The notes under the pieces were generated by a model. That model searched no databases. It had not been told where the DNA came from and worked only from the letters and a program-made list of their open reading frames with translations. This document shows, piece by piece, positions 28,820 through 58,400 of a stretch of 64,000 nt of DNA. The position numbers and the translations under genes are program-made. Position 1 is the stretch's first letter; each line of letters starts with the position of its first letter. Origin of the DNA: Bacteroidales bacterium (lineage in GTDB: Bacteria; Bacteroidota; Bacteroidia; Bacteroidales; WCHB1-69); contig JAVBLM010000001.1 in assembly GCA_031553535.1 (NCBI GenBank), positions 129,600 through 193,599 of the forward strand, given 5' to 3'.

Positions 28820-30151
28820 ATGATAAATTTTGACAACGGAAATCTAATGGAAATAACACCTTATATGGATGATCAAACAGCCGGAACATCTTCAATAATT
28901 AAGGTGATTGGTGTTGGCGGCGGCGGAAGCAATGCGGCCCGGCACATGTACAATATGGGTATTATCGGGGTTGATTTTATGATATGCAACACCGACAAAC
29001 AAGCCTTGGAAAGTAATCCTATCCCTATAAAAATACAATTGGGGAAAAATGGATTAGGCGCCGGAGCGATCCCTGAAGTTGCCAGAGATGCAGCGCTGGA
29101 CAGTGAAGAAGAAATAAAAGCTGCCCTTGCCGGAACAAAAATGTTGTTTGTAACAGCCGGTATGGGTGGAGGTACCGGAACAGGAGCCTCCCCTATTGTG
29201 GCTTCTATTGCCAGAGACTTGGGGATTTTAACGGTCGGTATTGTTACTTATCCGTTCAACTTCGAACAAAAAGACAAGTTTGACCTTGCCAATGAAGGGA
29301 TTAATGAATTAAGCCAAAACGTAGATGCCCTTATCGTCATTAAAAACGAAGCATTAAAAAGCTTTTACCCTGATTTAAAGCTATCCAATGCTTTTGCAAA
29401 GGTAGATGATGTTTTGTTAATCGCAGCAAAAAGCATTGCGGAACTTATCACGTTGGAATCCATTATCAATGTGGATTTTAATGATGTAAAAACTATTTTA
29501 CAGAACAGCGGAACCGCATTGATCGGTTCGGGAGAAGCTGAAGGGGAAGATAGAGCCTTTAAAGCAGTGGAAGCAGCAATTAACAGCCCGTTATTAGATC
29601 AAAATTCAATCTATGGTGCTGAAAAGTTATTATTCTTTATTTCATATAGCGACGATAATCAGATTACCATAAACGAACTGGAAAAAATAACCGAGGAACT
29701 GGAAAACAAAACCTGTACTACAAGTAAAAAACTAATCTGGGGACATGGAATTGACGATAACCTCGGAGATAAAGTACGGGTAACTGTCATTGCTACGGGA
29801 CTACACAACAATACAGGGACATATGGAAGCAAGGCATCTCCCGGAAAGGAAAATGCACCAGGTGAACAGGTTAAAATCCCTTATGATACGGATAACGCAC
29901 CTAAAGAAGAAAAGAAAACAAATGAATCTACGGTTATTAAAGTTCCTCTAGGCGAGGTTCCGGATAATAACCAATTACGAGGCAAATCGGAAGAAGAAGT
30001 AACGGAATATCTTAATAAGCCTGCTTATATCCGGGAAAGGGAATTGAAAAAATTCGACAGTAACTCGAATGATGAAATCTCCAATTACAAAGCAGGGGCA
30101 AACGGATTAGAATGTAATGCACCCTCTTTTCTAAACAACGTGGTTGACTAA
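28820..30151 (+). CDS. ftsZ: Cell-division GTPase FtsZ
   Basis: GVGGGGSNA and the tubulin signature GMGGGTGTGA. C-terminal PSFLNN peptide. Confidence 0.95.
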   Translation: MINFDNGNLMEITPYMDDQTAGTSSIIKVIGVGGGGSNAARHMYNMGIIGVDFMICNTDKQALESNPIPIKIQLGKNGLGAGAIPEVARDAALDSEEEIKAALAGTKMLFVTAGMGGGTGTGASPIVASIARDLGILTVGIVTYPFNFEQKDKFDLANEGINELSQNVDALIVIKNEALKSFYPDLKLSNAFAKVDDVLLIAAKSIAELITLESIINVDFNDVKTILQNSGTALIGSGEAEGEDRAFKAVEAAINSPLLDQNSIYGAEKLLFFISYSDDNQITINELEKITEELENKTCTTSKKLIWGHGIDDNLGDKVRVTVIATGLHNNTGTYGSKASPGKENAPGEQVKIPYDTDNAPKEEKKTNESTVIKVPLGEVPDNNQLRGKSEEEVTEYLNKPAYIRERELKKFDSNSNDEISNYKAGANGLECNAPSFLNNVVD

Positions 30152-30213
30152 CGATAAAATCTTTTTCATAATTCAAATTATGGCTACCTCCCCGGTAGCC
30201 TTTTTTATTTTTT
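30150..30213 (+). terminator. Conserved stop-proximal module plus intrinsic terminator (copy 1 of 3)
   Basis: aacgataaaatctttttcataattcaaattatGGCTACCtccccGGTAGCCttttttatttttt. Stem at 30182-30188 / 30194-30200. Near-identical modules are at 40290-40355 and 50090-50151. Confidence 0.8.
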
Positions 30214-39059: not shown

Positions 39060-39986
39060 ATGAACCAGCCTATAGGTGTAGAACTTGAGAATTTTGTTCG
39101 AGAAAAACATCCGAATAAGTATATTTTTAAGAATGAATTAATTATTTATGAAATTGATCAGGTTGATATGGAAATTGCAAAACAAATCCAAGAACAACCT
39201 CCAACCCGGATAAATGCGTCTTCATTCTTTTTTACGACACAAGGAGGAATGAGTGTTGATGTTGATTATCAAAAATATAGATTATCGGAAAACACGATAT
39301 TACAAATATCCAATATCCATATTCTTGACAAACTGAATTTTTCTCCTGACTTCAAAGGATATGTTCTGTTTGTGTCTCAAGACTTATTCAGCGTTATTAA
39401 AACAGAAGTTTTTTCTTTAAAATCATTAGGTTTTGAAACAAATCTTTTCCACCCTATTCTACAATTAAACAGAAAATCAACCCTCCTTCTGGAAGACATT
39501 ATTCACCGCATCCAAGGGCATATAAAAGATACAAATCATATCTTCCAGAGAAACCTCATCAAAAATGAAGTCAGCAACTTTTTGCTGGAACTTGCAGATA
39601 TGAATATTAAAAATGATAAAACTCCTGATCTTGTTTCGGAAACAAATCATAAAGAAGAGGTTTTACAGAAGTTTATCAAATTGATCATTTCGCATTGCAA
39701 AGAACAACATCTGGTCTCTTTTTATGCTTCCGAACTCTGCATGACACCGGAAAATTTATCCAGAATTATAAAAGCTATCAGTGGGGAAACTGTCAATGTA
39801 TGGATAGCAAATGCTTTGCTTGCTGAGTCGAAAATATTGTTGAGGAAACCTAAAATGAGCATTCAACAAGTGGCACAGGAATTGAATTTCGGAAATCAAT
39901 CTTCTTTTGGGAAATTCTTTAAAAAACACACTGGGAAAACCCCACTGGAATATAGAAGTGATGTCCTTTCAGATAAGGGAAATTAG
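39060..39986 (+). CDS. AraC-family transcriptional regulator
   Basis: C-terminal double HTH (ASELCMTPENLSRIIK... IQQVAQELNFGNQSSFGKFFKKHTGKTPLEYR). Confidence 0.85.
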   Translation: MNQPIGVELENFVREKHPNKYIFKNELIIYEIDQVDMEIAKQIQEQPPTRINASSFFFTTQGGMSVDVDYQKYRLSENTILQISNIHILDKLNFSPDFKGYVLFVSQDLFSVIKTEVFSLKSLGFETNLFHPILQLNRKSTLLLEDIIHRIQGHIKDTNHIFQRNLIKNEVSNFLLELADMNIKNDKTPDLVSETNHKEEVLQKFIKLIISHCKEQHLVSFYASELCMTPENLSRIIKAISGETVNVWIANALLAESKILLRKPKMSIQQVAQELNFGNQSSFGKFFKKHTGKTPLEYRSDVLSDKGN

Positions 39987-40046: not shown

Positions 40047-40301
40047 GGTGTATGACTATATCGTACTTTTGCGTACGAAAGTATCGTTCCACTGCGTACG
40101 TATGTATTGTCCACCTGCATATGCTTGTATCATACTATTTCTTCAATAAACGGACAAATATTATACAATAAATCCATGGAAAGCGAGTTAGGTATACACT
40201 CAATAGACATGAATGTGTCTCATTTAGCTGCCGGGATTTATTTCTACTCCATGGAATTCAACGGACAGAAGATCACCAAGCGAATGAGCATTAAACGATA
40301 A
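40047..40301 (+). pseudogene. Remnant of a T9SS cargo gene: C-terminal sorting domain fragment only
   Basis: ...LYHTISSINGQILYNKSMESELGIHSIDMNVSHLAAGIYFYSMEFNGQKITKRMSIKR* parallels the last ~55 aa of the 2772-aa protein (HVHSISGKLLY...AAGIYIYSMEFNGQRIVKRMSIKR*). There is no body of the gene upstream. Confidence 0.75.
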
Positions 40302-40325
40302 AATCTTTTTCATAATTCAAATTGT

Positions 40326-40355
40326 GGCTGCCTCCCCGGCAGCCTTTTTTATTTT
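40326..40355 (+). terminator. Intrinsic terminator (module copy 2 of 3)
   Basis: GGCTGCC-tcccc-GGCAGCC followed by ttttttatttt. Confidence 0.8.
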
Positions 40356-40449: not shown

Positions 40450-40541
40450 CTTAGGCTCGGAAGCTATTTCCGCTTAGGCAAAGAAGATGCTTCCGCTTAG
40501 GCTCGAAAGGTATGTTCGCTTAGGCTATGATGATACTTTAG
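40450..40541. repeat. Tandem array of four 23-bp hairpin units
   Basis: CTTAGGC recurs at 40450, 40473, 40496 and 40519. Stems are CGGAA/TTCCG, GAAG/CTTC and CGAA/TTCG. A further 2-unit 23-bp repeat (tatcgtacttttgcgtacgaaag / tatcgttccactgcgtacgtatg) is at 40061-40106. Confidence 0.7.
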
Positions 40542-40839
40542 ATTAAAATCCTCCATTCGGGCAAAGCCTCTCCCTTCGTAATGATGCTTTTTACTGTTTT
40601 CTGCATGTTGCTTATTGCACACTCTCTTCCTTTCCGGATTGGTGCATTACATGTAAGAATATCAATTTTCATCTTTCAAATTGAATTAGCATGAACAATC
40701 AAGACTAATTTCACGCATAAATCGAACGTTATTGTCGACTTTTTTATATTTATTTGATTTTTTCTCATTCACTAACAAATACATACATTTTATTGTGCGA
40801 TTATTTTACACAAATGCTCATACCATTCATATTTTATGT

Positions 40840-40847
40840 ATTTTTGC
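40840..40847 (+). promoter_or_regulatory. -7 promoter box (TAttTTTG) upstream of the leader-repeat array
   Basis: Exact TAnnTTTG match. I could not find any other exact match between 40302 and 41780. Confidence 0.3.
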
Positions 40848-40921
40848 TTCGTAGAAACAAAATTATGAGACAAAGATGAAGAAAACATAATTAATAAAGT
40901 TATTTACAAAAATAAAAAAAG

Positions 40922-41780
40922 ATGGAAAAGGTTTTTATTTTTAAAAAAGGTTTTATTATTGTTGACTATACTCCATTCGTCAAGCGAAAGGTTTTTCTTT
41001 ACTAGAATTTAGTCCTTGCTATTCAAGGGCTAAAAAAGTTACTCTTATTCCTATTCCTTAATAATCTTAAAGAATTATTTTCTTTAAACTATTTACAGGT
41101 TTAGCTATAGTGTTACAAGTATTGCTTATTTGTATACTTAAATTCTATCAGAATAAGGAGGAAGCTGAAAATCCTAATTTACAACAGAGTAAGCATAATA
41201 AATAAAAATAAAACAAGATGAAGAAGGTTTTTATTATTATCGACGATACCTATTTCGTCAGGCGAAAGATTTTTCTTTACTAGAATTTAGTCCTTGCTAT
41301 TCAAGGGCTAAAAAAGTTACTCTTATTCCTATTCCTTAATAATCTTAAAGAATTATTTTCTTTAAACTATTTATAGGTTTAGCTATAGTGTTACAAGTAT
41401 TGCTTATTTGTATACTTAAATTCTATCAGAATAAGGAAGAAGCTGAAAATCCTAATTTACAACAGAGTAAGCATAATAAATAAAAATAAAATAAGCCATG
41501 ATGAAGAAGGTTTTTATTATTATCGACGATTCCCATTTCGTCAAGCGAAAGGTTTTTCTCTACTAGGTTTTAGCCCTTTATATCTAAAGGCTAAAGAAGT
41601 TACTCTTATTCCTATTCCTTAATAGTCTTAAAGAATTACTTTCTTTAAACTATTTACAGGTTTAGTTATATCACTACAGGTATTATCTATTTGTATACCT
41701 AAATTGTATCAGAATAAGGAGGAAGCTGAAAATCCTAATTTATAACAGAGTAAGCATAATAAATAAAAATAAAATAAGCC
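40922..41780 (+). repeat. Three head-to-tail copies (296, 280/283, 283 bp) of the giant gene's upstream region plus its first ~20 coding nt
   Basis: ATG(ATG)AAGAAGGTTTTTATT occurs at 41218, 41498 and 41781, and in diverged form (ATGGAAAAGGTTTTTATT) at 40922. The intervening sequence is collinear in all copies. Confidence 0.9.
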
Positions 41781-44700
41781 ATGATGAAGAAGGTTTTTAT
41801 TTTTGTGTTAGGAATATTATTTCTTAACTTAACAGGACATTCCCAATCGGGAGTTCGAAAATGGATAGAGGATTTCGACGGAAGTACAGTTTCGTATGCC
41901 CAGAATCCTCAAGGCTCATGGGTGTTTAACACCGATTATTATCTTCCCAGCTTGAGCGGGTCGAGTGTATCAAAGTCTTATTTGGGATTTGTTCCCAGCA
42001 GAGAGGGAGATACAATTATTTTACAAACCGCCAGTGCATATGATTTGAGTAATTACGACTATGTTCAGTTACGCTTCAGTCACATTTGCAAGGTTTCCCC
42101 CATGGATATTGCAAAGATACAATACCGTATAGCCGGACAACGGTTTTGGGAAGACATCGATCCTGCTGACTATAAAGGAGGCGCTTCTAATTACACAAAA
42201 GCAAGAGGGTTTAATGCTGCAAGTTATCCCGAATGGCAAGCCAGAGACAGTACGGTTATTCCAATGCAATCGTGGTGGAAAGAAGAATTTTTCGACCTGA
42301 CTGTCAACATAAAGAAAATGAGTGGAGTGGAAATCCGTTTTTTGATTATACACGGGGATGTCCCACACACGCAGGCTTCTTTTGGCTGGCTACTGGAAAA
42401 CATCCAGTTAACGGCATCTACCCATGAATTAAGCCCTCCTATCGTAAAGTTCATCCCGCCATCGGTAAAAAATACCGTATATACTACCGGCCCTCATGAA
42501 ATAAATGCGAAGGTAAAAACCACTACCAACGCTCCTATCAAACATCCCTGGCTGAAATATACGGCAACCGAACCCGGTAAACCCGCCGTAACAGATTCCA
42601 TATCAATGACAAAGATAGCAGGAGATAGCTTGTGGAAAGCTACCATACCGCAATATATAGCAGGTACGAAAGTTGAATATTCTATTACAGGAAGAGACAC
42701 TATAGGAAATGAGGCAATCGATATGTCTGGATATGTGATAGTAAGGCCATCGGGAGGAGATAAAACAGGTTATGTCATAGTAGGTACCGGAACAACAACC
42801 ACCTCAACTTATTATTTTCCGGTAGGCCAATATTATGGTACCAGTTGGTCACGACAGATATATTTAGCCTCCGAACTAAATTCTACCTCTGCAGGAGGAA
42901 TAATTACAGAGTTCGCATGGGATTACGCCTCAAGCGGCACATTTAGTAAAACGAATCAATACTGCTATTTTCAAGTGGTAGATGATGTTGCAACTGTTTC
43001 AGGATATACAGATCCTGTTGCCAATGGAGCTACTTTAGTATGGTCGGGCACTTTTTCTGCCTCCGGCGGGCGTACATGGATAAATCTACAATTAGACCAG
43101 CCATTTTATTTACCCCCCGGAAAAAATTTGATGGTGTATTGGATAAATAATAATGGCACATCATATACTTCAACAACCTTATTTAATGGAACCTCCACCT
43201 CGCCAACAAACAGAACAATCTATGCAGGTGCTTTTAGTACAGTTTTTCCATCTACAAGTACCGGAACTCTCACGACAAACAGGCCCAATGCACGTTTTTA
43301 TATTATAGGGACTCCCCCTCTTAATTACTCCGCAGGAACTTTTTCTATAGATATGTCCGATACAATAATAGTATCTCCCGGACTAAGTGTTCCTATTGTG
43401 GCAACAATAAAAAACAAAGGGAAATCGAATCTGGATTCGGTGACGGTATCGTATTCTATCAATAATGCTGCTCACGTATCGAAAAAACTATATTTTAATC
43501 CGGGCTTGCCGTGGGATCACAATTACCAGGATACCCTGGGATATTATGTTCCCGGAGCAGCGATAAACAATGCTATTACCGTATGGATTTCATCTCCCAA
43601 TGGCGTACATGATTCCACTACCTGGGATGATACCTTAACAAAAAATGTATATGGAAGCAGTGATCTACTGGTAGCATTTGTTAGCCCGCCGGCTAATACC
43701 GTATATACCACCGGTCCATATGGGATAAAAGCTTCTATAAAGAGTATTACCGGAGCTGCACTCCCTGTCACTATTTCCTTACATGTAGATTATACCTATC
43801 AGGGAGTAACCACCAGTGATGTATTGCCCATGCTGTTGGATGCATCGGATAATTTATGGAAAGCCACCATACCCCAAAAACGCTTTAACAATCATGTTGA
43901 ATATTCAATTAGCCTGATAGATATAGTGGGTAATACTGTCGTCTTATCAAATAGCTATGATATCAAACGTTTGTGCGAAGGAACATCTAAGGGCTGCGAT
44001 ACCAATTCGGTGGGATTGGTTTCTATCGATTCACCGGAAAAAACAGGAGTACTCGCAGGCTATGATAAACCGGTACGGGTAACGTTGAAAAACAAGGGAG
44101 TGGCAGACTTGGATTCCTGTTATCTCAATTGGAGCCTCAACGGAGTACAACAACCGGGCACAGCTGTCTATAGAGGGCCATTGCCGGATGATTTTACCGA
44201 TACGATTACCGTAGGGTCGTACATGCCTGTAGCGAATCAAAGGGATACGATAAAGGTATGGGTAAGCATGCCCAACGGGAAGGTAGATCCTGTTAAAACG
44301 GATGATACATTGACGGTATCTCCATTGGGATGCGGAACTATTTTATCGGGTTATCACCAGATAGGGGAAGGCAGAACGTATACAAAATTGACCGATGTGT
44401 TAAATATAATACGTAATTGCGGAGTAAGCGGAAATCTTATTTTGCAGTTGAAAGGAGAACATCCGGGTGCGGATTTGAATGGCATATCGAATTATCTGCA
44501 AGGATATACTCTAACAATTACCTCGTATGATAATGATCCGGATAGTGCTAGAATAAAGGTTACCAGCGGAGCCGGCATTACACTCAATAACAGCAACAAT
44601 ATTGTAATAAAAAGCATTACTGTCGATGCAACCAAAGCATCGTATGCGATTCAGTTTACGGGAACATGCACCAATGTGGTCATACGCGATTGCAAGTTAT

Positions 44701-47700
44701 TAACCGATACTGCTTCTACAGCAACTACAGTAGCTCCTATCTATAAAGCATCTGCTACAGGAGTAGTAGACAGTATATTTATTATCCATAATCTTTTAGA
44801 TGGGGGATACGATGGGTTTAGTTTCTATGGAGCTCCGTCAACTTCCGTTTATGGGACCAATGTAATATTTGACAGTAATATAGTTCGCAATCAATCTCAT
44901 TACGCTTGCGCTCCGCAACATGTTGATTTTATAAGTTACTCTCATAACACCATATTGAGCAGAACTGCAAATATAGCCACAGCATGGCATGGCTTACGGG
45001 CAGTTTATTGCAATGGTCCTATTATTGGCAACCGCATACACCAACGCAATACAGGTATTACAAGTCCCGATGGAATACTAATACAATACTATAATCAATA
45101 TCCGGCTTCCAAGCTTCATCAAAGGACATTGGTTGCGAATAATGAAGTCATTACATCTCCAACCGGTGGTATTTCCGCACTACATTTCACTTCGGCAAAA
45201 GCCGAATGTATAAATAATTCTCTACATGTATCCGGAAGCGGCAATGCATATGGAATTTATATTGTCAATTCAACAATGAATGATCTGGCCATTAAAAACA
45301 ATAACATTGTCATGACAAGTGCTACCGCTCGTCCAATAGAGTTTAGCGGTACAGGCAATCTGCAATTATATGATATTGACTATAACAATTTATATGCCCC
45401 TACAAATATAGGGTTTTATGGGGTACTTATTACCTCAATGCAGACCTGGCAGCAAACAATACCCACCGATCGTCATTCAAAAAACATTATGCCTGTTTTT
45501 GTAGATCCGTCAATGAAAACAAGTCTGGAAATAGTTAAAGATTTACGCTTTTTATGCAATGTAATACCACCTGTTATAACGGATATACGTGGTAATATAA
45601 GGGCTGTTACTACAACTATGGGATGTTATGATGTGGGTTCTTACCAAGCAAATGCCACACTTTGGGAAATTACAGGGCTAACCGACGGACATACCCCGGG
45701 ACAAACAGAAGATGTTAATGTGGTTGTATTTAATACCGGAGAAGACGACATAACATCTATCAACCTGGAATGGTCGGTGAATGGAACATCAAAAGGAAGT
45801 GCAAATCATCCGGTATCATTATCCAGAGGCGACTCTACAACAATTATGGTAGGACAACTCACCTACCCGTCGGCAAATGTAACGGTAAAAGTGTGGATCA
45901 ACAATTTGAATAATGATCCCCAATTGGACGAATATGCCGGGGATGATACAGTGAGCCGGTTTGTTAATGTTTGTAACGGAGGAGGCTATAGCGGAGTGGT
46001 AAAAGTAGGCAAGAGTGTGGGAGCTTTCCCCTCTTTTGAAGCGGCTTATCAAGCATTGACCTTATGTGGTGTATTAAGCAATATAACGATTGAAATTGAG
46101 CCGGGTACATATCCGGATAACCTGAGCATATCGAATAATGCAACCGCATTTGGGACTCATAAGCTGACAGTTACTTCTTCCACTTCCAATGCAAGTGATG
46201 TAATCGTTAATTCTACCATACGCATTGAGAATGCAACCAATGTTACCTTTAAAAACATAACGGTAGACGTAGATTCTGTAAGTAATGCCTGTGGGATTGT
46301 ATTTGCAGGAACCTGTTCTAATATTGAAATAAACGCATGTACTATTCTGGCTGATCCGACAACAACTTCTTCTACTGTCCATGGAATATGGTATAATAAT
46401 ACAAATGGTTCTGGAAATCAAATTTCAAATATATCCATTATTAATAATACGATAGATGGAGGATATTGTAATGTTTATTTTAATTATTTAGGTGGGGCTG
46501 TTGGGCAAGGTTTGAATAATATAATAGATAATAATATTTTCTTGCGAGCCTGTAGCAGCGTATATATTATTCAATACGGACATGTGAGAAGTGTATCCAA
46601 TAATACCATTATTACTCGAAATACAAGCACTCAACAATATGGCATACATTTCAGGACGAATACCTGTGTGGATACGATTGCAAATAATAAAATCTTAATG
46701 CAGGGAACAGGCACATGTTACGCATTAGATTTGTATGAACAAATAAATAGTACAACCAATGGGGCTACCCATCCGGTATTGCTTGTCAATAATGAAATAC
46801 GTCATCTTGCATTGTCAGGAGGAACTTATGGAATACTTATGTACCAAACACGGGCAGATATCTTGCATAATTCTGTTTATTTCAAAGGGACATCAAGTGC
46901 TTATGCTATGTATATAAATAATACAAGAACAACCGATTACCTCAACATTAAGAATAACATCTTTTCAGTGGAAACTTCTGGAGCGGGATATCCACTTTAT
47001 GTAAACACAGCTACACATGTTACACAAGCCTTTAATACATTTATGGATTATAATGATTATCACAATACAGGTGCTAATTTTGCTTATTTAGGAGGAACTA
47101 CTATCACAACATTACCTGCTTTGCAGACGGCAACAGGCCAGGATGCCAACTCGGTAAGTGTAAAACCATTGTATATAGATACCGCTGTAAGCCTGGAATG
47201 TTCCTCGTATGATGATAAGATGGAGTGTCCTTTGCCTAACGGTGTTACGACCGACATAGAGGGAACTACCCGCCTGTTAATCACCACAATGGGGGCATAC
47301 ACCGATCAACCGGTAGGATTGGATTTAAGGGCTCAGGCAATTACACCCTGGAATACAAAAGTAGTAAAGGATCAGGTAGTTCAGGTAAATTTAAATGTAG
47401 CCAGCGGCGGGACAACACCTGTCTCTTCTGCCACCTTCGGCTGGAGTTTGAATGGACAAACCCAACAAACCGGTATTCCATGGAATCCTGCCCAGCCATT
47501 GGGATTAGCACAACAAGCCAATGTTACCATAGGCAGTTTCACCGTTACCAATACTACCAATACATACAATATAGTAGTGTGGATAGAGCGTGCCAACGGG
47601 CAACAGGATATGAAACAGAAGAATGATACGGTAAGAACATCCGCTACACTTGTTCCTTTGGCAGAGTGGGTAAAACCATTTAATGGGGATACAATATCCA

Positions 47701-50099
47701 TCCTTTCTTTTGATGTACCTGCAATTATATATACGAGTACAGGTGCTCCTCAAACTCCACCGGAATTAATAGTTGTTACAACAATCGGTACGTCTGTTTT
47801 CCAGAATACAGCACCTATGACATTGTCGAATGGTGTATGGACGGCGAATGTTCCGCAGCAATATTACGGAAGCAAGGTTGTATATTCTCTGAATGTCTCG
47901 GACACAAAGAGTAACAGTATTTCTTTGAAGGATTCGGTTTATATAATTTCCGGTGTGGGGACAGAACTCTATACAGGCCATGATTTAGCCGTATTCTCAC
48001 TGGTATCCCCGGTAACGAATCCTGATGACCTCTGCGTTCCGAATTATTTACCGGTGCAAGTACCCATTCTTAATTTGGGAGAGGATGATTATGATTTTAC
48101 ACAGGATTCCATAAAAGTATGTGCAGAGATCATCGATCCTAAAGGGTTTATTCATTCGATAATACATACTGTCAAGACGGGAACATTAGAGTCGGGACAT
48201 ACCGATACTGTAGAAATAATGTCCGCTTTGCCGGTGTATGCCGGTCTCTATAAGATTAAAACATGGGTAAGCAGTTCTGTAGATCATATTATATATGATG
48301 ATACATTAATTACCACCTATGCATCACCCAAAATAGGTTTACCTCTGTATACGAACTTCAGTACGGGCATTCCTATCGAATTTGTTTCTTCTCCGAGAAA
48401 TGGTAATAGCGTATGGGAACATTACTATGACCCAGGTTCTACCGTTCAGCCCGATTCGGGAACAGCGATGATACGGTTTAACGGCACTCCGGGTTCGATA
48501 GCACGTTTGAGTACCGGTCAATTGGATTTGTTCCAAGCCTTCAATCCCTTTGTAGAGTTCTGGTATTACCATGACGCGACAACATCAACCAGTGACTATA
48601 CGAATACGGAGATCAATGTATTAGTGAATGATGTAAGGCATAATATAGGTACAATCTATTTGAAAGATTCGTCAGGCCGTCACGGTTGGACACATTATAA
48701 ATATGATCTAAGTGCATTTACGACGGTTAATGCCTGTATTTTGATACAGTTTGAATCTATCAATAAGTATTCGGGTTCCGCTCAGCATATAGATTATATA
48801 GGAATATCTTCCGAACCTGACGCAGCTGTTTCTGGGATCATTATAACCCCTGCACCTGATTTATGCCATCGTTCGAACAAGAATATTTCTGTGGTATTGA
48901 CAGCTACCCGCTCCCAGGCAATACATTTTGACAATGCATCGGCTTTGATACTGGACATGAATGGAATTATCCATACTGTTTCCTTACAGGGCATAGTTTT
49001 AGATGGCAATAGCTCTGATACAGTACCCGTATTATCCAATATTACTATCCCGGTTGGAATTACTGACATGAAAGCCTATTTTAATACTCCGGTAGATAAT
49101 ATCCATGCCAATGATACGGCTGACCTTTCATTGGATATACGTCCTGCAATGTCTCTAACGGCGCAATCCATATCAGGAGGAACGAATTGCCTGGCAAAAG
49201 GGGGACCGGCGCAACAAGAAGTGAAGATAAAGAATATGGGTAATATAGAGATTCCCGGGATTGAGTTGGTATTAAATGTAATGACTTCTCCTCAACAAAC
49301 CCTTACAAAATCAGTAGGGAATTTGGCTCCGGGAGATTCTGCTATTATCCTCTTCGATGCTTATACCGTTCCTGCCGAGGCACAATATCAGGTACAGATA
49401 GCAGGATATATGAGTTGTGATTCGGTTTTGGTAAACGCCAGCACTCCTGTCACGGAATGCGTAGATATGGATGACCTTGTCCTGGTAGAAACCTTAAGTC
49501 CCGATCCTCTGGATGGAGGGATCGATCAGGTTGGTTCTACCAAGGAAATAGAAGTTTCCTTAACGAATACAAGTGATATGAAAAACTATCAGAACGTGGA
49601 TGTTACTACATTAATCGAGAATGCGAGCGGTCAGATACTGGCCCGGCATGTAGATATTATCCCTGCAGTTAATGTCTCGGAAAGTAATAAGCCGTTTAAA
49701 TTCACAGACAAGTACACCGTTCCTAACGAGGGAGTATATTATGTAAGGGTGTTTATAAGCAAAGTAGATAATTATCAGGAAAATGATACGATTCTGATAA
49801 CACGTACTACATCAAACAACTTACAGGGAACAGGGAATAATGTCTTTGCAATGGAGCAAAATATCCCCAATCCTGCCAATACCGGCACGACAATACGTTA
49901 TCATATACCGGAACCGGGAGAAGTAGTTTTCCATGTTCACAGCATAAGCGGTAAATTGCTGTATACCAAAGTACTGCAAGCCGAACCGGGAAAGCATACT
50001 ATAAATGTAAACACAAGTAGTTTTGCCGCAGGAATCTATATTTACTCCATGGAATTCAATGGACAACGGATTGTTAAGCGAATGAGCATCAAACGATAA
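41781..50099 (+). CDS. Giant (2772 aa) T9SS-secreted surface protein with jelly-roll, Ig/FN3-like and CARDB-like domains and two right-handed parallel beta-helix modules
   Basis: Signal peptide MMKKVFIFVLGILFLNLTGHSQ. Repeated CARDB-like segments (...NKG..DL.S..L.WSLNG...). PbH1-type repeats (NNSNNIVIKSITVDA..FTGTCTNVVIRDCKLL; FAGTCSNIEINACTIL). MAM-like jelly roll near the C-terminus. Type A T9SS C-terminal domain. Confidence 0.9.
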   Translation: MMKKVFIFVLGILFLNLTGHSQSGVRKWIEDFDGSTVSYAQNPQGSWVFNTDYYLPSLSGSSVSKSYLGFVPSREGDTIILQTASAYDLSNYDYVQLRFSHICKVSPMDIAKIQYRIAGQRFWEDIDPADYKGGASNYTKARGFNAASYPEWQARDSTVIPMQSWWKEEFFDLTVNIKKMSGVEIRFLIIHGDVPHTQASFGWLLENIQLTASTHELSPPIVKFIPPSVKNTVYTTGPHEINAKVKTTTNAPIKHPWLKYTATEPGKPAVTDSISMTKIAGDSLWKATIPQYIAGTKVEYSITGRDTIGNEAIDMSGYVIVRPSGGDKTGYVIVGTGTTTTSTYYFPVGQYYGTSWSRQIYLASELNSTSAGGIITEFAWDYASSGTFSKTNQYCYFQVVDDVATVSGYTDPVANGATLVWSGTFSASGGRTWINLQLDQPFYLPPGKNLMVYWINNNGTSYTSTTLFNGTSTSPTNRTIYAGAFSTVFPSTSTGTLTTNRPNARFYIIGTPPLNYSAGTFSIDMSDTIIVSPGLSVPIVATIKNKGKSNLDSVTVSYSINNAAHVSKKLYFNPGLPWDHNYQDTLGYYVPGAAINNAITVWISSPNGVHDSTTWDDTLTKNVYGSSDLLVAFVSPPANTVYTTGPYGIKASIKSITGAALPVTISLHVDYTYQGVTTSDVLPMLLDASDNLWKATIPQKRFNNHVEYSISLIDIVGNTVVLSNSYDIKRLCEGTSKGCDTNSVGLVSIDSPEKTGVLAGYDKPVRVTLKNKGVADLDSCYLNWSLNGVQQPGTAVYRGPLPDDFTDTITVGSYMPVANQRDTIKVWVSMPNGKVDPVKTDDTLTVSPLGCGTILSGYHQIGEGRTYTKLTDVLNIIRNCGVSGNLILQLKGEHPGADLNGISNYLQGYTLTITSYDNDPDSARIKVTSGAGITLNNSNNIVIKSITVDATKASYAIQFTGTCTNVVIRDCKLLTDTASTATTVAPIYKASATGVVDSIFIIHNLLDGGYDGFSFYGAPSTSVYGTNVIFDSNIVRNQSHYACAPQHVDFISYSHNTILSRTANIATAWHGLRAVYCNGPIIGNRIHQRNTGITSPDGILIQYYNQYPASKLHQRTLVANNEVITSPTGGISALHFTSAKAECINNSLHVSGSGNAYGIYIVNSTMNDLAIKNNNIVMTSATARPIEFSGTGNLQLYDIDYNNLYAPTNIGFYGVLITSMQTWQQTIPTDRHSKNIMPVFVDPSMKTSLEIVKDLRFLCNVIPPVITDIRGNIRAVTTTMGCYDVGSYQANATLWEITGLTDGHTPGQTEDVNVVVFNTGEDDITSINLEWSVNGTSKGSANHPVSLSRGDSTTIMVGQLTYPSANVTVKVWINNLNNDPQLDEYAGDDTVSRFVNVCNGGGYSGVVKVGKSVGAFPSFEAAYQALTLCGVLSNITIEIEPGTYPDNLSISNNATAFGTHKLTVTSSTSNASDVIVNSTIRIENATNVTFKNITVDVDSVSNACGIVFAGTCSNIEINACTILADPTTTSSTVHGIWYNNTNGSGNQISNISIINNTIDGGYCNVYFNYLGGAVGQGLNNIIDNNIFLRACSSVYIIQYGHVRSVSNNTIITRNTSTQQYGIHFRTNTCVDTIANNKILMQGTGTCYALDLYEQINSTTNGATHPVLLVNNEIRHLALSGGTYGILMYQTRADILHNSVYFKGTSSAYAMYINNTRTTDYLNIKNNIFSVETSGAGYPLYVNTATHVTQAFNTFMDYNDYHNTGANFAYLGGTTITTLPALQTATGQDANSVSVKPLYIDTAVSLECSSYDDKMECPLPNGVTTDIEGTTRLLITTMGAYTDQPVGLDLRAQAITPWNTKVVKDQVVQVNLNVASGGTTPVSSATFGWSLNGQTQQTGIPWNPAQPLGLAQQANVTIGSFTVTNTTNTYNIVVWIERANGQQDMKQKNDTVRTSATLVPLAEWVKPFNGDTISILSFDVPAIIYTSTGAPQTPPELIVVTTIGTSVFQNTAPMTLSNGVWTANVPQQYYGSKVVYSLNVSDTKSNSISLKDSVYIISGVGTELYTGHDLAVFSLVSPVTNPDDLCVPNYLPVQVPILNLGEDDYDFTQDSIKVCAEIIDPKGFIHSIIHTVKTGTLESGHTDTVEIMSALPVYAGLYKIKTWVSSSVDHIIYDDTLITTYASPKIGLPLYTNFSTGIPIEFVSSPRNGNSVWEHYYDPGSTVQPDSGTAMIRFNGTPGSIARLSTGQLDLFQAFNPFVEFWYYHDATTSTSDYTNTEINVLVNDVRHNIGTIYLKDSSGRHGWTHYKYDLSAFTTVNACILIQFESINKYSGSAQHIDYIGISSEPDAAVSGIIITPAPDLCHRSNKNISVVLTATRSQAIHFDNASALILDMNGIIHTVSLQGIVLDGNSSDTVPVLSNITIPVGITDMKAYFNTPVDNIHANDTADLSLDIRPAMSLTAQSISGGTNCLAKGGPAQQEVKIKNMGNIEIPGIELVLNVMTSPQQTLTKSVGNLAPGDSAIILFDAYTVPAEAQYQVQIAGYMSCDSVLVNASTPVTECVDMDDLVLVETLSPDPLDGGIDQVGSTKEIEVSLTNTSDMKNYQNVDVTTLIENASGQILARHVDIIPAVNVSESNKPFKFTDKYTVPNEGVYYVRVFISKVDNYQENDTILITRTTSNNLQGTGNNVFAMEQNIPNPANTGTTIRYHIPEPGEVVFHVHSISGKLLYTKVLQAEPGKHTINVNTSSFAAGIYIYSMEFNGQRIVKRMSIKR
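44000..47300 (+). repeat. Two copies of a ~1.65-kb CARDB + beta-helix supermodule (protein-level repeat) inside the 2772-aa gene
   Basis: The marker motif F.GTC(T/S)N..I..C.(L/I)L occurs at about 44652 and about 46300 (spacing ~1645 nt). Each copy is preceded by a CARDB-like W(S)(L/V)NG segment. Confidence 0.7.
49836..50096 (+). other. T9SS type A C-terminal sorting domain of the 2772-aa protein
   Basis: NNVFAMEQNIPNPANTGTTIRYHIPEPGEVVFHVHSISGKLLY...AGIYIYSMEFNGQRIVKRMSIKR. The N.PNPA start and G.Y......NG......K.... end are typical of Por_Secre_tail domains. Confidence 0.8.
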
Positions 50100-50122
50100 A
50101 ATCTATACATAATTCAAATCAT

Positions 50123-50151
50123 GGCTGCCTCCCCGGCAGCCTTTTTTATTT
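50123..50151 (+). terminator. Intrinsic terminator (module copy 3 of 3)
   Basis: GGCTGCC-tcccc-GGCAGCC followed by ttttttattt. Confidence 0.8.
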
Positions 50152-50154
50152 CAC

Positions 50155-50460
50155 AGGTTTCCTTGTTATTCGAAGGCATAGCTCCATGTTGTTTTAAAGA
50201 AGTCCATAGGCACTACAAGGTTGGGAAAGGGATATTCATTCTTGTTTAAAGATGTCCCAAGGCTGGGAAAGGGATTTTCATCTTTGTTTGGAGGTGTCCC
50301 AGAATTGGGAAAAGGATTTTCACTCTTATTTGAAGGTGTCCCAAAGTTGGGAAAGGGGTTTTCATCCTTGTTTAGAGATGTCCCAGAATTGGGAAAAGGA
50401 TTTTCACCCTTATTTGAAGGTGTCCCAGGGTTGGGAAAGGTTCATGCAGCTATTACAAGG
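50155..50460. repeat. Tandem array, about 7 units of exactly 42 bp, two hairpins per unit
   Basis: TGGGAAA recurs at 50222, 50264, 50306, 50348, 50390 and 50432, with one or two degenerate units to the left. Unit: tgggaaagggattttcatctttgtttggaggtgtcccagaat. Hairpin TCCCA-gaat-TGGGA. Confidence 0.9.
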
Positions 50461-52452: not shown

Positions 52453-55400
52453 ATGAAAAAATGGATGTTTTTATTACTGGTAACTTTAATTTCTCTACAA
52501 GCAAGCTATTCTCAAAATGTTTCTTATGAAAGAGAAAATTTTGATGGAAACAGTATCAGCTTTGTTTCTCAACCTTCCTCGTCATGGAGAATTGACAAAA
52601 ATTACTATGTAAGTTCTCCTAATTCTTATCGAGGTGTTGTCCCCAATAAGTCAGGAGACTCAACGATTTTAACCTCTCCTCCTTATGATTTTTACACGAA
52701 TGGTTATTCCAATATATTACTTCGGTTCAACCATATCTGCAAAATATCTCCCCGGGATATCGTCCGGATAGAATATAAGATTCAAAATCAAGGCTGGCTT
52801 CCAATACCGGCAACTGCTTATTTGGGAAAAGCCGCCAATTATATAACCACCGGATTCAATGCCGCCAGCTATACTCAATGGCAAGCCAACGATAGTACAG
52901 CCCTTCCTACAAACAACTGGTGGAAAGAAGAAACATTTGACCTGGGCTTTTTAATGGGATATGCCCCTAATGCTCAAATCCGGTTTATTATAAAGCACGG
53001 CAGTACACCCGGAACACAAATTTCATACGGGTGGCTACTGGACAACATTGAGATAACTGCTTCCACTTATCTGGTTCGGGATCCTATTGTAGAATTTATA
53101 GGTAGTGTTGTAAAGGACACCGTTAACAGTACCGGGCCTTATACTATAAATGCAAAAGTACAAACCACAACAAGTGCTCCAATTAAGACCCCTTTCCTGA
53201 CATATACATATACTTTGAATGGAGTATCTACTACAAATTCCATCGAAATGGATCCTGTATCCGGGGATTCTTTATGGAGAGGTGTTTTACCTCAAATTGA
53301 AGGAGGAAGCACTGTTTCGTATTCCATCACAGGCTATGATACAAATGGGAATAATGCAACAGTACAAGAGCGTTATTTCATTAAGAAACCCTCCGGCAAT
53401 GATAGTGTTTCAGTTGCATTAACAAGCATAAACTCTCCCGCGAAAGGAGAAAACCCAGTAGGGGCTACCCCTGTAACAGCTACATTCCGTAACAAAGGTG
53501 ATTCCACGTTAAGAGCTGTGGAGATCAATTGGAGTTTAAATGGAGTGTTGCAAACAGTACAACCTCATACCTGGACAGGGGGTCTACCCTGGGATTTTGA
53601 ACATACGGAGCAATTAGGCACCTTCAACCCTCGTTTAAGAATGTCGGATACTATTGTTATATGGGTAAACAATCCCAATGGCATACAAGACCCCAAGCAT
53701 TCGGATGACACCTTATCCATTATTACTTATGGTTGTCCAGTAGATGTATCGGGCAGTTTCCCTGTAGGGAAGAACAGTGAATTCAAAACGATACAGGAAG
53801 CTTTTAACTCTTTTCAAAAATGCAGCCCTACCGGAAATATCACCCTCGAACTGGAATCCGACACGATCCGTGAAAACTGGGATTTCTCCAATATCAATTC
53901 TTTTATGAATGGATACATGCTGACGATAACATCGTTAAAACATCACAGGGATAGTGTCGTTCTTCGTCCAAATACAGGAGGAATAGGTATAACATTGGGA
54001 AATACAAGAAACCTTACATTGGATGCGATTACAGTTGATGTTAGCCATTTAATTCCTCAGATTCCTGTTATGATGAATGTATATGCTATCTATTTCAGTA
54101 ATACATGTACCAACATTATCATTAATAATTGTAATATAAAAGCACACAAAACATCTAACTCAACTAATATACATCCAATCTTTAAAGGAAGTACAGGGCT
54201 TGCAGACAGTATTTATATAACAAATAATATCTTAGATGGAGGATATTCGGGATTTACTTTTCCCGGTGGAAATACAAATCAATATGGAAAGAATATAGTT
54301 TTTGACAGCAATACACTCACTAATCAGTATTATTATGGAATAAATGCTTCTTATACCGATTTTAAAAGCATATCCAATAACACAATTCTTAGCAGGGAAG
54401 CTGCCAATTTCAGCGCAACATGGATTGCCATATATATGAACAATGCCAACGGTAATATTACAGGGAACCGGATCCGGCAACGTAATACATCAAACATTAC
54501 CAACCCGAGAGGGATTTTCAGTTATTACCATAATTATTACTTTACGAACGACACCGCGCTTATTGCCAACAATGAAATTATAATTTATACAACCGGAGAA
54601 TATGAAGGAATACAGGTAAATTATTCCCGTTCGAAAATCATACACAATTCCATATATGTAAAAGGATCCGGATCTTCAAGAGGGATTTACATCAATGAGC
54701 CCGGATATGTTAATATCCATGTTATCAAGAACAATAATATAATTATGGAATCTGCTGCTGCATACCCTATCCAGATTTCAAAGGCAACAAATATAAGGAG
54801 TTATGATATAAACAGTAATAACTATTATGCTCCGACTTATATTGGAAATATAGGAGGAACAGGAGGGGATAAACTAACAATGGATGCCTGGCAAAAGATG
54901 GTTACAACAGACGTGAATTCCGTAAGAATCCGAAGTTCTTTCATAGACAGCACCAAAAACCTGAAGATGCGTGACTATACGGGACTGGAATGCAAGCCTC
55001 TTCCGGAAGTACCTAAAGATATTGATAATACACCGCGCCTGGGATTAACAACGATGGGTTGTTACCATTACGATCCGATGTATACGGTAAATGCAAGATT
55101 AACAGACCTCCAGGGATGGAGGGAAGGAAACATTTCGGGAGAATCCGATACGGTAAAAGTATTACTGACCAATACAGGAGCAACTCCTTTGACAAATGCC
55201 AATTTAACATGGATATTCAATGGGGCAGAAACAACAACAGCATGGTCGGGAACTTTAGCCAAAGGGGAAAGCACTACTGTCACATTAGGGAAAATAACCT
55301 ATATCTCGGGTAATTATACAATAACCGCCAGAATAGATAACTTGGGCGGCTCTTTGCAAGACGATTTTTTACAGGATGACACTACTTCCGTTTCAATATT

Positions 55401-58400
55401 TGTATGTTCATCTATATACAGTACAGGAATATATACTATCGGAAAAACAGCAAGTTCTTTTACATCGGTAGAAGAAGCTATTAAGAAGCTATCTCTTTGC
55501 GGAGCAAACGGAGACATTACACTGGAAATAAAAAACGGTACATACGCCAACACCGTCGACCTGACCGGTATTTCTTCTTTGTTAGGGAACAATAAATTGA
55601 CCATCAAATCCCAAAGCGGAAACCCCGGAGATGTTATTCTACAAACAACCAATATCGGATTTACATTAGCACGAAGCAATAACATTGTAATAGATGGCGT
55701 AACAATAGATGCAAAGGGAGGAATAGTAGGCATACAGTTTTTAGATACATGTACAAATGTTGTCATTCAAAATTGTATATTATTGGTTGATACAACCGTC
55801 ACATCCAACAAATATGGTGGGATTTATAAGCCCAGTATTGCCAATGTTGCAGATAGCATCTTTATACTAAATAATATTATAGAAGGAGGGCATTTTGGGA
55901 TCTGGCTTTATGGTGTCAGCTCAAGTGTCTATGACAGTAATATTTTTATAACCGGTAATGCTATCTCCAAACAATCACATTATGGAATTTATTTATATTA
56001 TACTGATTTTAGAATTATATCAAACAATATAATAACAAGCAGATTGTCCAACATAAATACTTCATGGACAGGAATAAATACTTCAAATACGAATGGAGAC
56101 ATTATTGCAAATAAAATAAAACAATTAAACAGGGCAATATCATATGCAGTAGGAATAAGTCTTTCAAATCATAATAATAACAAAACGGAGTTAGCGCTGA
56201 TTGTAAACAATGAAATAAATGGTTATGTGGGAAATGGTTATGCTGCATTAGCTCTTTCAAGTACTCGTGCCGATATTATACATAATTCTATATATGTTCG
56301 AAGAGTTGCAGGTTCAAAGGGTATTGGTATAAGTGACGGAACCAGTAATCGTCTCAATATTAAAAATAATAATATTATAATGGACACTACGGGTACCTTC
56401 CCTATCTATATTAATGGTTCTTCAAATGCAGCTTTGTATAACTTTGAATCTAACAACTATTATTCGCCAAGTTACATAGGATACGCAGGTGCAAATAAAG
56501 TAACAATGGAGCAATGGCAAGATGTGTTCTTTACAGATATTAATTCCGTAAAGGTTCGTCCTACCTTTATAGACAGTACTATTAATTTAAAATTCATAAA
56601 TTATGACAGTGTAAAATGTCCTGTTTTGTCAGATGTTGATACCGATTTGGAAGATAGCATCCGGGCAGGGGCATTTACAGCAATGGGATGTTATCATGGA
56701 TTTGCACCTTTTTCGAAGAATATTAAACTAACGGAAATCCTTAATTGGAATGAAGGGCCAGTCTATGGAACAAATGATACGGTTAAGGCTGTAATTATAA
56801 ATACCAGTTTATCCTCTTTCTTGCCACAAACTATTAATTGGTCTTTTAATGGAAATTCCAGAACAGGAGTTCCATCAAACAAGACATTGGCATATGGGGA
56901 AAGGGATACCATTACGTTAGGAATAATAAATTACGGTTTGGGACATAATATATTAACTGCATGGATCGATAATTCTCAGGACAATTATCTCGAAGATGAT
57001 ACGATACTGGCAACAAGTTATATATGTTCTACAGCCGGAATTAACGGTACTTTCACGGTAGGAAAAACAGGGGATTTTAAAACCATAAATCTTGCACTAC
57101 AACAAATAGAAGACTGCGGAGTAAATGGAAATATTATACTGAAAGTACAACCCGGCCTGTATGTTGAAGACATAGACTTAACTGACTATGCTTTAATATT
57201 AGGTAATAATAAATTGACGATTACCTCTACTACAGGAAATGCTGAAGACGTTGTTTTTAAAACACTGTCAGTGGGAATGATATTGTCCCAAAGTAATAAT
57301 ATCGTTATAGATGCCATTACAATTGATGCAACAAAAGGGAAGTTTGCAATACAATTTAAAGGCGCTTGCACCAATGTTGTAATTAGTAATAATATTCTAT
57401 TAGCAAACCTAACTACAACTTATAGCGATTATAATCCTATACATAAAGGTAGCAATACAGGTGTAGTTGATAGTATTTTTATTGTAAATAATGAATTAAA
57501 CGGAGGATATATTGGTTTTAATTTTATTGGAGGAGTAGCTTCGACCCTTGGAACAAATGTGGTTTTTGACAGTAATCGAGTTTTCAATACACATACTTCG
57601 GGAATATATCCGCAATATACTCATTTTACCAGTATTTCGAATAATACCATATTAAGCAGAACGGAAAATACAATAACCAGTACATGGTATGCAATGCGTT
57701 TTGAAAGTTGCAATGGCCCCATTACAAATAACCGGATAAAACAACAAAGTAATGTGATTGCACAACCTTACGGAATATATCTTAATAATTATAGTATCAA
57801 TTCAACAGCAGATACTGCATTGATTGCCAACAATGAAGTCATGCTTAATGTTGCAACAGGTACAACAGGTGGCATATATACAAATGTTTCCCGTACAAAA
57901 ATTATCAATAATTCCATTTACGTATCCGGTGCTGCTGCAGCAAGGGGAATGTATATTGCTAATGATAATAATAGCCGTACTGTCGCAAAAAACAATAATA
58001 TTGTTGTGGCATCTTCTTCTGCATATCCTATTTATCTGAATTACGTAACCAATATGAGTTTATGTGATCTGGATTACAACAATATGTACGGCACCGGATA
58101 CGTGGGATACTGCGGAAGTACCGGAGGTGCAAAAGCCACCATAGATGCCTGGCAACAATTTGTTACCAGTGATAAGCATTCAGTGAGTGTTTATCCGAAT
58201 TTTATTGATCTTACCAAAAATATGGATCTATTGGATAGTGTATTGAGTTGCCCTGTATTTGAAAATGTTACAGAAGATATAAATAAGAATACTCGTGTTT
58301 CTCCCAACACTACAATGGGTGCATATCAATATATAGGTACAACACACGATGTCCATCCTGTTGAATTTGTAAATTTATCTCCAACTTATCCGCTTGGAAC

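Follow-up and report, generated by a model that had tools for sequence, protein, structure and literature searches.

Short upstream reading frames before a giant T9SS gene of a Bacteroidales bacterium probably reflect tandem triplication of its DUF805b expression cassette

Why should a gene for a very large secreted protein be preceded by three short open reading frames (ORFs) in series, each followed at a nearly constant distance by a palindrome? This question is raised by a 64,000-nucleotide (nt) stretch of DNA from a Bacteroidales bacterium (NCBI GenBank assembly GCA_031553535.1, contig JAVBLM010000001.1, positions 129,600 to 193,599; hereafter the window), in which three mini-ORFs and their palindromes, which we call H2, lie directly upstream of a gene for a 2772-amino-acid (aa) cargo protein of the type IX secretion system (T9SS). 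A reading based on the sequence alone had proposed that each leader unit encodes a conserved mini-ORF followed by a hairpin maintained by compensatory changes, possibly a translated upstream ORF (uORF) coupled to an RNA structure in the style of attenuation. The explanation that we favour, and hold to be reasonably probable, is that the expression cassette of the giant gene was triplicated in tandem by unequal crossing-over, and that the locus does not demonstrate a regulatory device made of uORF and hairpin. Both ingredients of this new instance are familiar, namely the leader RNA and the recombination process that multiplied it.

The three mini-ORF copies are not independent of each other, as they are parts of the units of one 283-bp tandem repeat. 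Tandem Repeats Finder reports a single array at 40947-41801 with a period of 283, 3.0 copies and a 91% match, and extension by the repeat finder to 40904-41804 gives three copies of 275 nt, the other two being 95% and 87% identical to the first one. A family of 39-nt repeats is present in four copies, the last of which, at 41766-41804, reads AAAATAAAATAAGCC-ATGATGAAGAAGGTTTTTATTTTT. In the alignments, these final 39 nt of the array correspond to the spacer and ATGATGAAGAAGGTTTTTATT of the 2772-aa gene, and the resemblance to the units is lost within a few bases beyond 41804. Each 283-bp unit comprises a putative promoter, the leader RNA DUF805b in its predicted pseudoknot form, an A-rich spacer, an ATG and the first 7-8 codons of the gene. 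Because the units end just inside the coding sequence, each extra copy would create a decoy start, from which translation would enter DNA that formerly lay upstream of the promoter and would end at the first in-frame stop, after 21-27 codons.

How the array arose can be read from its middle unit. A segment-wise comparison over 273 positions finds 35 differences between units 1 and 3. Unit 2 differs from unit 3 at 0-2 positions in columns 1-37, the ORF half, and from unit 1 at only 3 of the 213 columns from H2 to the end (columns 61-273). Unit 2 is a recombinant, with the 5' part of unit 3 and the 3' part of unit 1, and because of this hybrid the formation of the array can be ascribed to unequal crossing-over. 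Written as A for the type of unit 1 and B for that of unit 3, the mosaic A, B5'-A3', B is what a single unequal crossover would yield from an array of two units; the exchange point, at about 41259-41283, lies within the 3' part of the mini-ORF.

The element that the units have in common with other genomes is DUF805b (Rfam RF02914), which we take to be a candidate cis-regulatory leader RNA of Bacteroidota belonging to clan CL00115. The 3' part of the unit matches the RF02914 model over its full length, including the 4-bp hairpin, the GGAA...GAAAA loop and the AGAGUA tail; the Rfam gathering score is 35.6 bits, and copy 2 carries a G to A change at a conserved loop position (Table 1). The distances from GUA to ATG are 26, 28 and 28 nt for mini-ORF 2, mini-ORF 3 and the 2772-aa gene, respectively. 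Scanning a genome collection with the core of the motif gave 120 loci; the AGAGUA tail is present in 86-88 of them, and about a quarter are chance matches that lack it. Judged from the tail-bearing loci, DUF805b is found across Bacteroidota before many different genes, and in 86 other Bacteroidota loci GUA and ATG are mostly 21-28 nt apart. A fixed distance between promoter and DUF805b was considered as well and rejected, since no positional signal was found upstream of the motif in these 86 loci.

The window thus shares with the family the full-length match to the model, the characteristic distance to the start codon and the pairing of loop and tail described below. It differs in that its three copies are only 278-283 nt apart and that two of them feed ORFs of 21-22 codons; moreover, the mini-ORF and H2 are not part of the motif. 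In about 1 Mb of sequence from 128 other loci, DUF805b copies on the same strand are at least 342 nt apart, and each precedes an ORF of 75-245 aa at all loci except L081, where the ORFs are unclear. The expectation that three leader units in series would be unusual was correct, as no comparable spacing occurs in the 128 other loci.

The alignment of DUF805b also pointed to a second helix. In the loop GGAA-NCN-GAAAA, the nucleotides N-C-N pair with the triplet that directly follows AGAGUA, and among 76 distinct instances (from loci L001-L120) 95-97% of the alignment cells are paired. At pair 10-30 the combinations are UA (26), GC (21), AU (14) and CG (6), and at pair 12-28 they are CG (48), UG (12) and UA (11); none of 500 shuffles reaches the observed covariation of loop and tail. 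In the copies of the window, the three pairs are G-C, C-G and U-A. On the evidence of these alignments DUF805b appears to form an H-type pseudoknot, while the consensus line of the Rfam model shows the 4-bp hairpin only. In the literature searched, DUF805 and DUF805b turned up only in a benchmark mention, and no mention of DUF805b was found in the text of the discovery paper that was searched.

Behind many DUF805b leaders (L020, L011, L058, L093, L099 and L113) we observed small peptides with an N-terminus of the form MKK..L...L.K..I..L. At L020 there are two tandem peptides of 75-80 aa with a GG motif and tails rich in Gly, Ser, Thr and Cys, which resemble precursors of bacteriocins or of ribosomally synthesized and post-translationally modified peptides. 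DUF805b may mark genes for highly expressed secreted or precursor peptides.

Table 1. Features of the window at and around the repeat array (positions are those of the window; nt, nucleotides; MFE, minimum free energy of the RNA fold)
Feature	Position	Strand	Remarks
AraC-family regulator gene	39060-39986		
Intrinsic terminator	40326-40354	+	GGCTGCC-tcccc-GGCAGCC + T-run; closes the 40107-40301 fragment
Perfect TAnnTTTG box	40839-40846	+	TATTTTTG; upstream of array, 76 nt before ATG of mini-ORF 1
Tandem repeat	40904-41804	+	283 bp, head-to-tail, 3.1 copies, units 87-95% identical
Repeat unit 1	40904-41199	+	contains 18-nt internal duplication
Mini-ORF 1	40922-41005	+	27 aa, MEKVFIFKKGFIIVDYTPFVKRKVFLY; without upstream DUF805b copy
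H2, unit 1	41008-41034	.	TTTAGTCCTTG-ctatt-CAAGGGCTAAA; MFE -12.7 kcal/mol, z -3.9
Candidate -7 box, unit 1	41125-41132	+	CTTATTTG, 6/8 to TAnnTTTG; consensus scan
DUF805b copy 1	41155-41195	+	36.5 bits; GUA 26 nt before ATG of mini-ORF 2
Repeat unit 2	41200-41482	+	
Mini-ORF 2	41218-41283	+	21 aa; first 7-8 codons duplicate start of 2772-aa gene
H2, unit 2	41286-41312	.	identical to unit 1; MFE -12.7 kcal/mol, z -3.9
Candidate -7 box, unit 2	41403-41410	+	CTTATTTG, 6/8 to TAnnTTTG; consensus scan
DUF805b copy 2	41433-41473	+	33.5 bits, E 7.5e-07; just under gathering threshold
Repeat unit 3	41483-41765	+	
Mini-ORF 3	41498-41566	+	22 aa; ATGATG start, like 2772-aa gene
H2, unit 3	41569-41595	.	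+ strand -8.9 kcal/mol (z -1.3); - strand -10.5
Candidate -7 box	41686-41693	+	TCTATTTG, 7/8 to TAnnTTTG; 22 nt before DUF805b copy 3
DUF805b copy 3	41716-41756	+	39.7 bits; leader of 2772-aa gene
Partial fourth repeat copy	41766-41804	+	A-rich spacer + first 8 codons of 2772-aa gene
2772-aa T9SS cargo gene	41781-50099	+	leader triplicated; signal peptide, T9SS type A C-terminal sorting domain

The consensus of the -7 box in Bacteroidota is TAnnTTTG, as in the sigma-A promoters of Bacteroides and Flavobacterium. On the + strand of the intergenic region, candidate boxes are found in all three units and upstream of the whole array (Table 1), and at the homologous locus L123 the DUF805b-type motif is preceded, at a distance of 20 nt, by a perfect box. 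Judging from these boxes, each unit probably carries its own promoter, although one promoter per unit and one long leader are both possible; the terminator at 40326-40354 marks the upstream limit of the transcription unit. A scan for sigma-70-type promoters was set aside as uninformative for Bacteroidota.

All three mini-ORFs were found exactly where the sequence-only reading had placed them, and each ends in TAC TAG. Their description as conserved does not hold, as the similarity between them equals the identity of the repeat and purifying selection was not seen. Following the shared eight codons, an ORF of at least 21 codons occurs in 28% of the dinucleotide shuffles of the unit (P=0.28). 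Non-synonymous and synonymous nucleotide differences stand at 8:1 between units 1 and 2, 4:1 between units 2 and 3 and 7:1 between units 1 and 3, and the middle of the ORF, in which 7 of 21 nt differ between unit 1 and unit 2 or 3, has the highest rate of difference among the segments of the unit. The basic C-terminal half, FV(K/R)RK(V/I)FLY, had also been regarded as kept; with 1-3 differences in 23 nt it does no better than the non-coding spacer. The peptides have no match in Pfam or NCBIfam and show neither regulatory codon runs nor arrest-type conservation, and homology of their remainder to the signal peptide or N-terminus of the 2772-aa protein was not found. The peptide is not under selection beyond what descent explains.

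Mini-ORFs 2 and 3, if transcribed, are nevertheless probably translated as decoys, because their initiation context, with DUF805b and the A-rich spacer, is nearly identical to that of the 2772-aa gene. Of the proposed translated uORF, this part remains plausible, whereas its role in an attenuation device is unsupported. To our knowledge, Bacteroidota do not use Shine-Dalgarno pairing. The A-rich spacer before each ATG (AUAAUAAAUAAAAAU; 41757-41780) is complementary to the U-rich codons 4-8 (GUUUUUAUUAUUAU; 41790-41806), and this complementarity is repeated in each unit, and is also seen between 40906-40918 and 41794-41806. Such pairing could place the start codon in the loop of a weak A-U helix.

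With respect to the hairpin, the 23-nt stem-loops at 41010-41032, 41288-41310 and 41571-41593, which start 4-5 nt after the stop codon, are indeed present, and the palindrome extends to 27 nt as TTTAGYCC-N12-GGCTAAA. This pattern occurs only in the three units in the 64 kb, against 0.25 matches expected by chance. Its maintenance by compensatory changes is a claim that we cannot uphold, given borderline statistics, a shift in register and a weaker stem in unit 3. When the register is kept fixed, 2 of the 11 pairs are broken in unit 3 (CA and UU) and there is one one-sided change and no both-sided compensation; the change from T-G to C-G, which had been taken as compensatory, is present, but is one-sided and hence not a compensation. 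Pairing on the + strand is regained solely through a shifted register with a bulged C, and 26 of 200 shuffles fold equally well. The - strand of unit 3 can pair into a perfect stem of 10 bp that contains a single G-U pair. The favoured strand differs between the copies, being the + strand, via a G-U pair, in units 1 and 2 and the - strand in unit 3. Introducing the same number of random substitutions into the unit-1 hairpin gave an equally stable + strand fold in 11% of the trials for the 27-nt version and 5.6% for the 33-nt version (eight tests, P values uncorrected).

Neither does H2 resemble an attenuator. It lacks the U-tract of a terminator, the ORF before it has no run of regulatory codons, and the predicted folds show no alternative pairing. 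The terminator scan, which finds 40326-40354, does not call H2, which is followed by AAAAAAG on the + strand and by AAATTC on the - strand, and no helix competing with H2 appears in the consensus or single-sequence folds. A 7-bp alternative pairing with UUUAGCU about 60 nt downstream was noticed by eye and is not in the predicted folds. If the cassette was triplicated as we consider fairly likely, H2 would be a passenger from DNA that formerly lay upstream of the promoter. Its clustered and partly complementary changes are best explained by template switching or by weak selection for the palindrome.

Other structural candidates fared no better. A third variable stem-loop (41104-41151 in unit 1) shows two both-sided changes in the consensus fold; it was dropped as a maintained structure, as its stability is lost in unit 3 (P=0.62). 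The whole repeat unit folded as RNA is not exceptional in structure (z -1.6). In a search for an inverton, the only inverted pairs were the H2 palindromes with one another (71% complementary) and AT-rich runs, and no recombinase was found among the neighbouring genes scanned, so that the locus does not qualify as a phase-variable invertible promoter.

Several observations weigh against neutral triplication as the whole story. The differences between units 1 and 3 are unevenly spread: 27 of the 35 fall within 102 of the 273 columns, namely the ORF middle, H2 and the third stem-loop (binomial P 2e-6, for regions picked after inspection of the data), and the DUF805b leader with its spacer is 96-98% identical between the unit types. 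Instead of neutral decay, this pattern could reflect selection acting on some portions of the decoy units; it would also fit patchy gene conversion or quasi-palindrome (template-switch) mutation. Tandem repeats are usually lost fast, yet the unit types are 13% apart, and for this reason the array may be maintained. The 18-nt insertion of unit 1 preserves the reading frame, which would happen by chance in one case out of three. On the - strand, the simulated substitutions gave an equally stable H2 fold in just 2.6% (27-nt) and 1.6% (33-nt) of the trials, which is nominally significant before any correction for the eight tests. Finally, at the homologous loci L127 and L129, described below, a 94-codon upstream ORF has stayed open across 39% nucleotide divergence (P=0.008 for 111 random substitutions), and the duplicated leader there is 74% conserved, compared with 55-63% in the neighbouring intergenic DNA.

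These homologous loci bear directly on how general the arrangement is. The best N-terminal homologues of the 2772-aa protein are 41-54% identical, those with a name being metagenome-assembled genomes (MAGs) of Bacteroidales. Even the nearest homologues of the giant gene, at most 54% identical, are without this ORF and hairpin, and an orthologous unit was not found in the collections searched. A lack of uORF and hairpin at homologous loci had been named beforehand as counting against a regulatory device; both are indeed missing from seven of seven loci, and three of the seven nevertheless carry a different copy, derived from their own leader and start. In a BLAST comparison of the units with the window and all fetched loci, only the DUF805b part gave matches; the part comprising ORF, H2 and spacer is unmatched elsewhere in the window and in the 120 DUF805b-pattern loci. 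A metagenome scan with a 20-mer invariant in the three units yielded two chance matches only, and exact-protein look-ups with the AraC gene, the giant gene and a TolC-like gene found no independent assembly or strain variant.

No upstream copy is present at four of the seven homologous loci (L121, L123, L128 and L130); L121 (41.5 bits) and L123 (26.3 bits) have a single DUF805b-type leader and no array. The three with an upstream copy of their own leader or start (L122, L127 and L129) belong to two other Bacteroidales lineages. At L122, a truncated copy of the gene start of 35 codons lies about 297 nt upstream and is 77-80% identical to the true start (4465-4572 versus 4760 onwards). At L127 (2304-2697 versus 2890 onwards) and L129 (1053-1445 versus 1639 onwards), a 94-codon copy with a duplicated leader lies about 590 nt upstream. 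The decoys of L127 and L129 are of the same length and 61% identical in DNA without gaps (38% in protein), and they group together and not with the true N-termini (27-30%); a family search with the 94-aa decoy of L129 found only itself. The upstream ORFs of these loci share no sequence, length or comparable hairpin with the mini-ORFs of the window.

A side observation concerns the DNA further upstream. Arrays of 22-23-nt tandem repeats, in which each unit is palindromic, lie a few hundred bp upstream of the giant genes, with sequences that differ among the loci: CGGAAG..TTCCG in 3.3 copies in the window (40450-40526), AAAAGGGTCTTACCTTTT in 7 copies at L127 (2031-2206) and AAAAGGGTTATCCCTTTT in 5 copies at L129 (780-911 and 1470-1491). 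At L127 and L129, a gene for an HU-HIG-type DNA-binding protein is located just upstream.

The strongest competitor to triplication, though an unlikely one, is that the mini-ORFs are functional translated uORFs in which the act of translation matters and not the peptide. A ribosome at the UAG would cover and melt the 5' arm of H2, 2-5 nt downstream. In this way it would modulate the read-through, the stability or the accessibility to Rho of a long leader that begins upstream of the array. This would agree with the position of mini-ORFs 2 and 3, each behind a full DUF805b leader at the canonical distance, with the perfect TAnnTTTG box upstream of the whole array, with the constant distance of 4-5 nt between stop and hairpin, and with the leader parts of the decoy units being the best conserved (1-2 differences in 63 nt). 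Conversely, selection on length and sequence beyond descent was not seen, H2 has no U-tract and no predicted structure connects it with the following start, its stem is weaker in the unit nearest the gene, and DUF805b copy 2 is altered at a conserved position and falls under the Rfam threshold. The comparison with other loci cuts both ways. Analogous self-derived upstream ORFs exist at L122, L127 and L129, and it is because the ORF of L127 and L129 was kept open and its leader conserved that we retain functional uORFs as a tentative explanation; the upstream ORFs of those loci nonetheless differ in sequence, length and hairpin, and at four of the seven homologous loci there is no decoy.

A broader form of this idea is that giant T9SS genes of this Bacteroidales group are selected to keep one or more upstream copies of their own leader and start, as translated decoys that set or buffer expression. 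Self-copies recur in three lineages and differ in their boundaries, with three units of 21-27 codons in the window, 35 codons at L122 and 94 codons at L127 and L129. We regard such selection as rather doubtful; if it existed, the mini-ORFs and palindrome of the window would, with the same low likelihood, be one local version of a general device.

It is also conceivable, but improbable, that H2 acts as DNA, as an operator bound by a dimeric transcription factor such as the product of the adjacent AraC-family gene (39060-39986), and that the preceding ORF is irrelevant. Across the three units the outer half-sites are the same and equally spaced, and the inner 12 nt vary; every copy has an imperfection when read as RNA from one of the two strands, which a site in duplex DNA would tolerate; and each candidate promoter has H2 about 110 bp upstream of it, a distance that fits an upstream activator site. 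On the other hand, no further copy of the motif exists in the 64 kb, and the DNA before the paralogous gene at 52453 lacks it too; the inner 12 nt, moreover, remain self-complementary, a property not required of an operator. Proteins of the AraC family typically bind direct and not palindromic repeats.

That the mini-ORFs are real small-protein genes and the array a row of DUF805b-led peptide genes is very hard to believe: DUF805b does often precede tandem small genes (two GG-leader-type genes of 75-80 aa at L020, paralogue pairs at L018 and L066), but peptides of 21-27 aa fall far short of every such example, their N-termini come from DNA copied from the start of the giant gene, nearly all substitutions are non-synonymous, no family matches, and homologous peptide genes were not found in the collections searched. 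Equally remote is an assembly artefact, for although repeats interrupt the short-read assembly of this organism, its Logan contig stops at the terminator module by ftsZ, 10 kb before the locus, and the look-ups returned no independent assembly of it, the units differ at 5-13% of positions in a structured mosaic, whereas collapse or expansion during assembly gives identical copies.

Triplication of the cassette, to which we now return, can be compared with several known systems. Leader-peptide attenuation (trp, his, pheA, pyrBI; erm, cat) likewise combines a short leader ORF with a stem-loop within reach of a ribosome at the stop; the window lacks the U-tract terminator, the antiterminator pairing, the regulatory codon run, the arrest-type conservation and the sequestration of the next start. 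Tandem riboswitches (glycine aptamers, TPP, T-box) also place several complete copies of a cis-regulatory RNA before one gene, but the copies of the window each bring a start codon and probably their own promoter, and are recent paralogues made by crossover. With the RecA-dependent amplification of promoter-proximal regions by unequal crossing-over, the array shares head-to-tail units, a hybrid middle unit and diverged short homology at its ends; its unit types, 13% apart, are old for a bacterial tandem duplication, and the duplicated segment includes the translation start, which results in decoy ORFs. In Ripley's model, quasi-palindrome or template-switch mutations reportedly arise in clusters, and they are said to be able to create and maintain RNA hairpins without selection. 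The differences in the window are indeed concentrated in three stem-loop stretches and are partly complementary in H2, but no specific event can be reconstructed, and the other two clusters lose pairing overall.

The neighbourhood of the array provides further context. The 2772-aa protein matches TIGR04183 with 35.2 bits (cutoff 23) and Pfam Por_Secre_tail, and its N-terminal WIEDFDG region is kept in homologues. The closest relatives of the FtsZ encoded in the window, besides its own sequence, are from Bacteroidales MAGs, with 75-78% identity. Upstream, a 64-codon ORF fragment (40107-40301) closes with a T9SS sorting domain (29 bits to Pfam Por_Secre_tail). At the DNA level, the 3' ends of this fragment and of the giant gene share 84% identity (40223-40354 versus 50021-50151), and the same terminator follows both. 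The fragment is probably the remnant of a deleted upstream paralogue. The terminator belongs to a module of about 62 nt, consisting of a stop-proximal spacer, GGCTGCC-tcccc-GGCAGCC and a T-run, which occurs three times: after ftsZ (30150-30211), after the tail fragment (40294-40355) and after the giant gene (50087-50151). The ftsZ and tail-fragment copies are 95% identical, and the third lies inside the 84%-identical 3'-end match. Just past the terminator of the giant gene, at 50216-50440, there is a tandem repeat of 42 nt (84 nt at the higher order) in 5.4 copies, each unit of which contains TCCCA..TGGGA.

A second giant gene (52453-64000, + strand) of at least 3850 codons is cut off by the end of the window. 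Its product begins with MKKWMFLLLVTLISLQASYSQ...ENFDG, and by this N-terminal motif the gene is a paralogue of that at 41781. Upstream of it we found no DUF805b and no H2 palindrome, and homology of this upstream region to the leader of the gene at 41781 was discarded, as nothing scored above shuffles. A 9-codon ORF (MEKDFFSFL) 67 nt before its start is probably due to chance.

In summary, the effect of the array is probably quantitative, through more promoters and leaders and a copy number that can vary by recombination, and not that of a switch made of uORF and hairpin. The locus carries a general caution, in that a repeat that includes a start codon will always mimic a conserved uORF, and a palindrome carried along with it will look maintained. 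It also offers a clear example of a DUF805b cassette multiplied before a gene for a 2772-aa T9SS protein, which could change expression by copy number, and the covariation that supports the pseudoknot sharpens the model of a leader that is widespread in Bacteroidota. If the recurrence of self-derived upstream ORFs is real, it would point to an unexplored form of control of the very long genes for secreted proteins.

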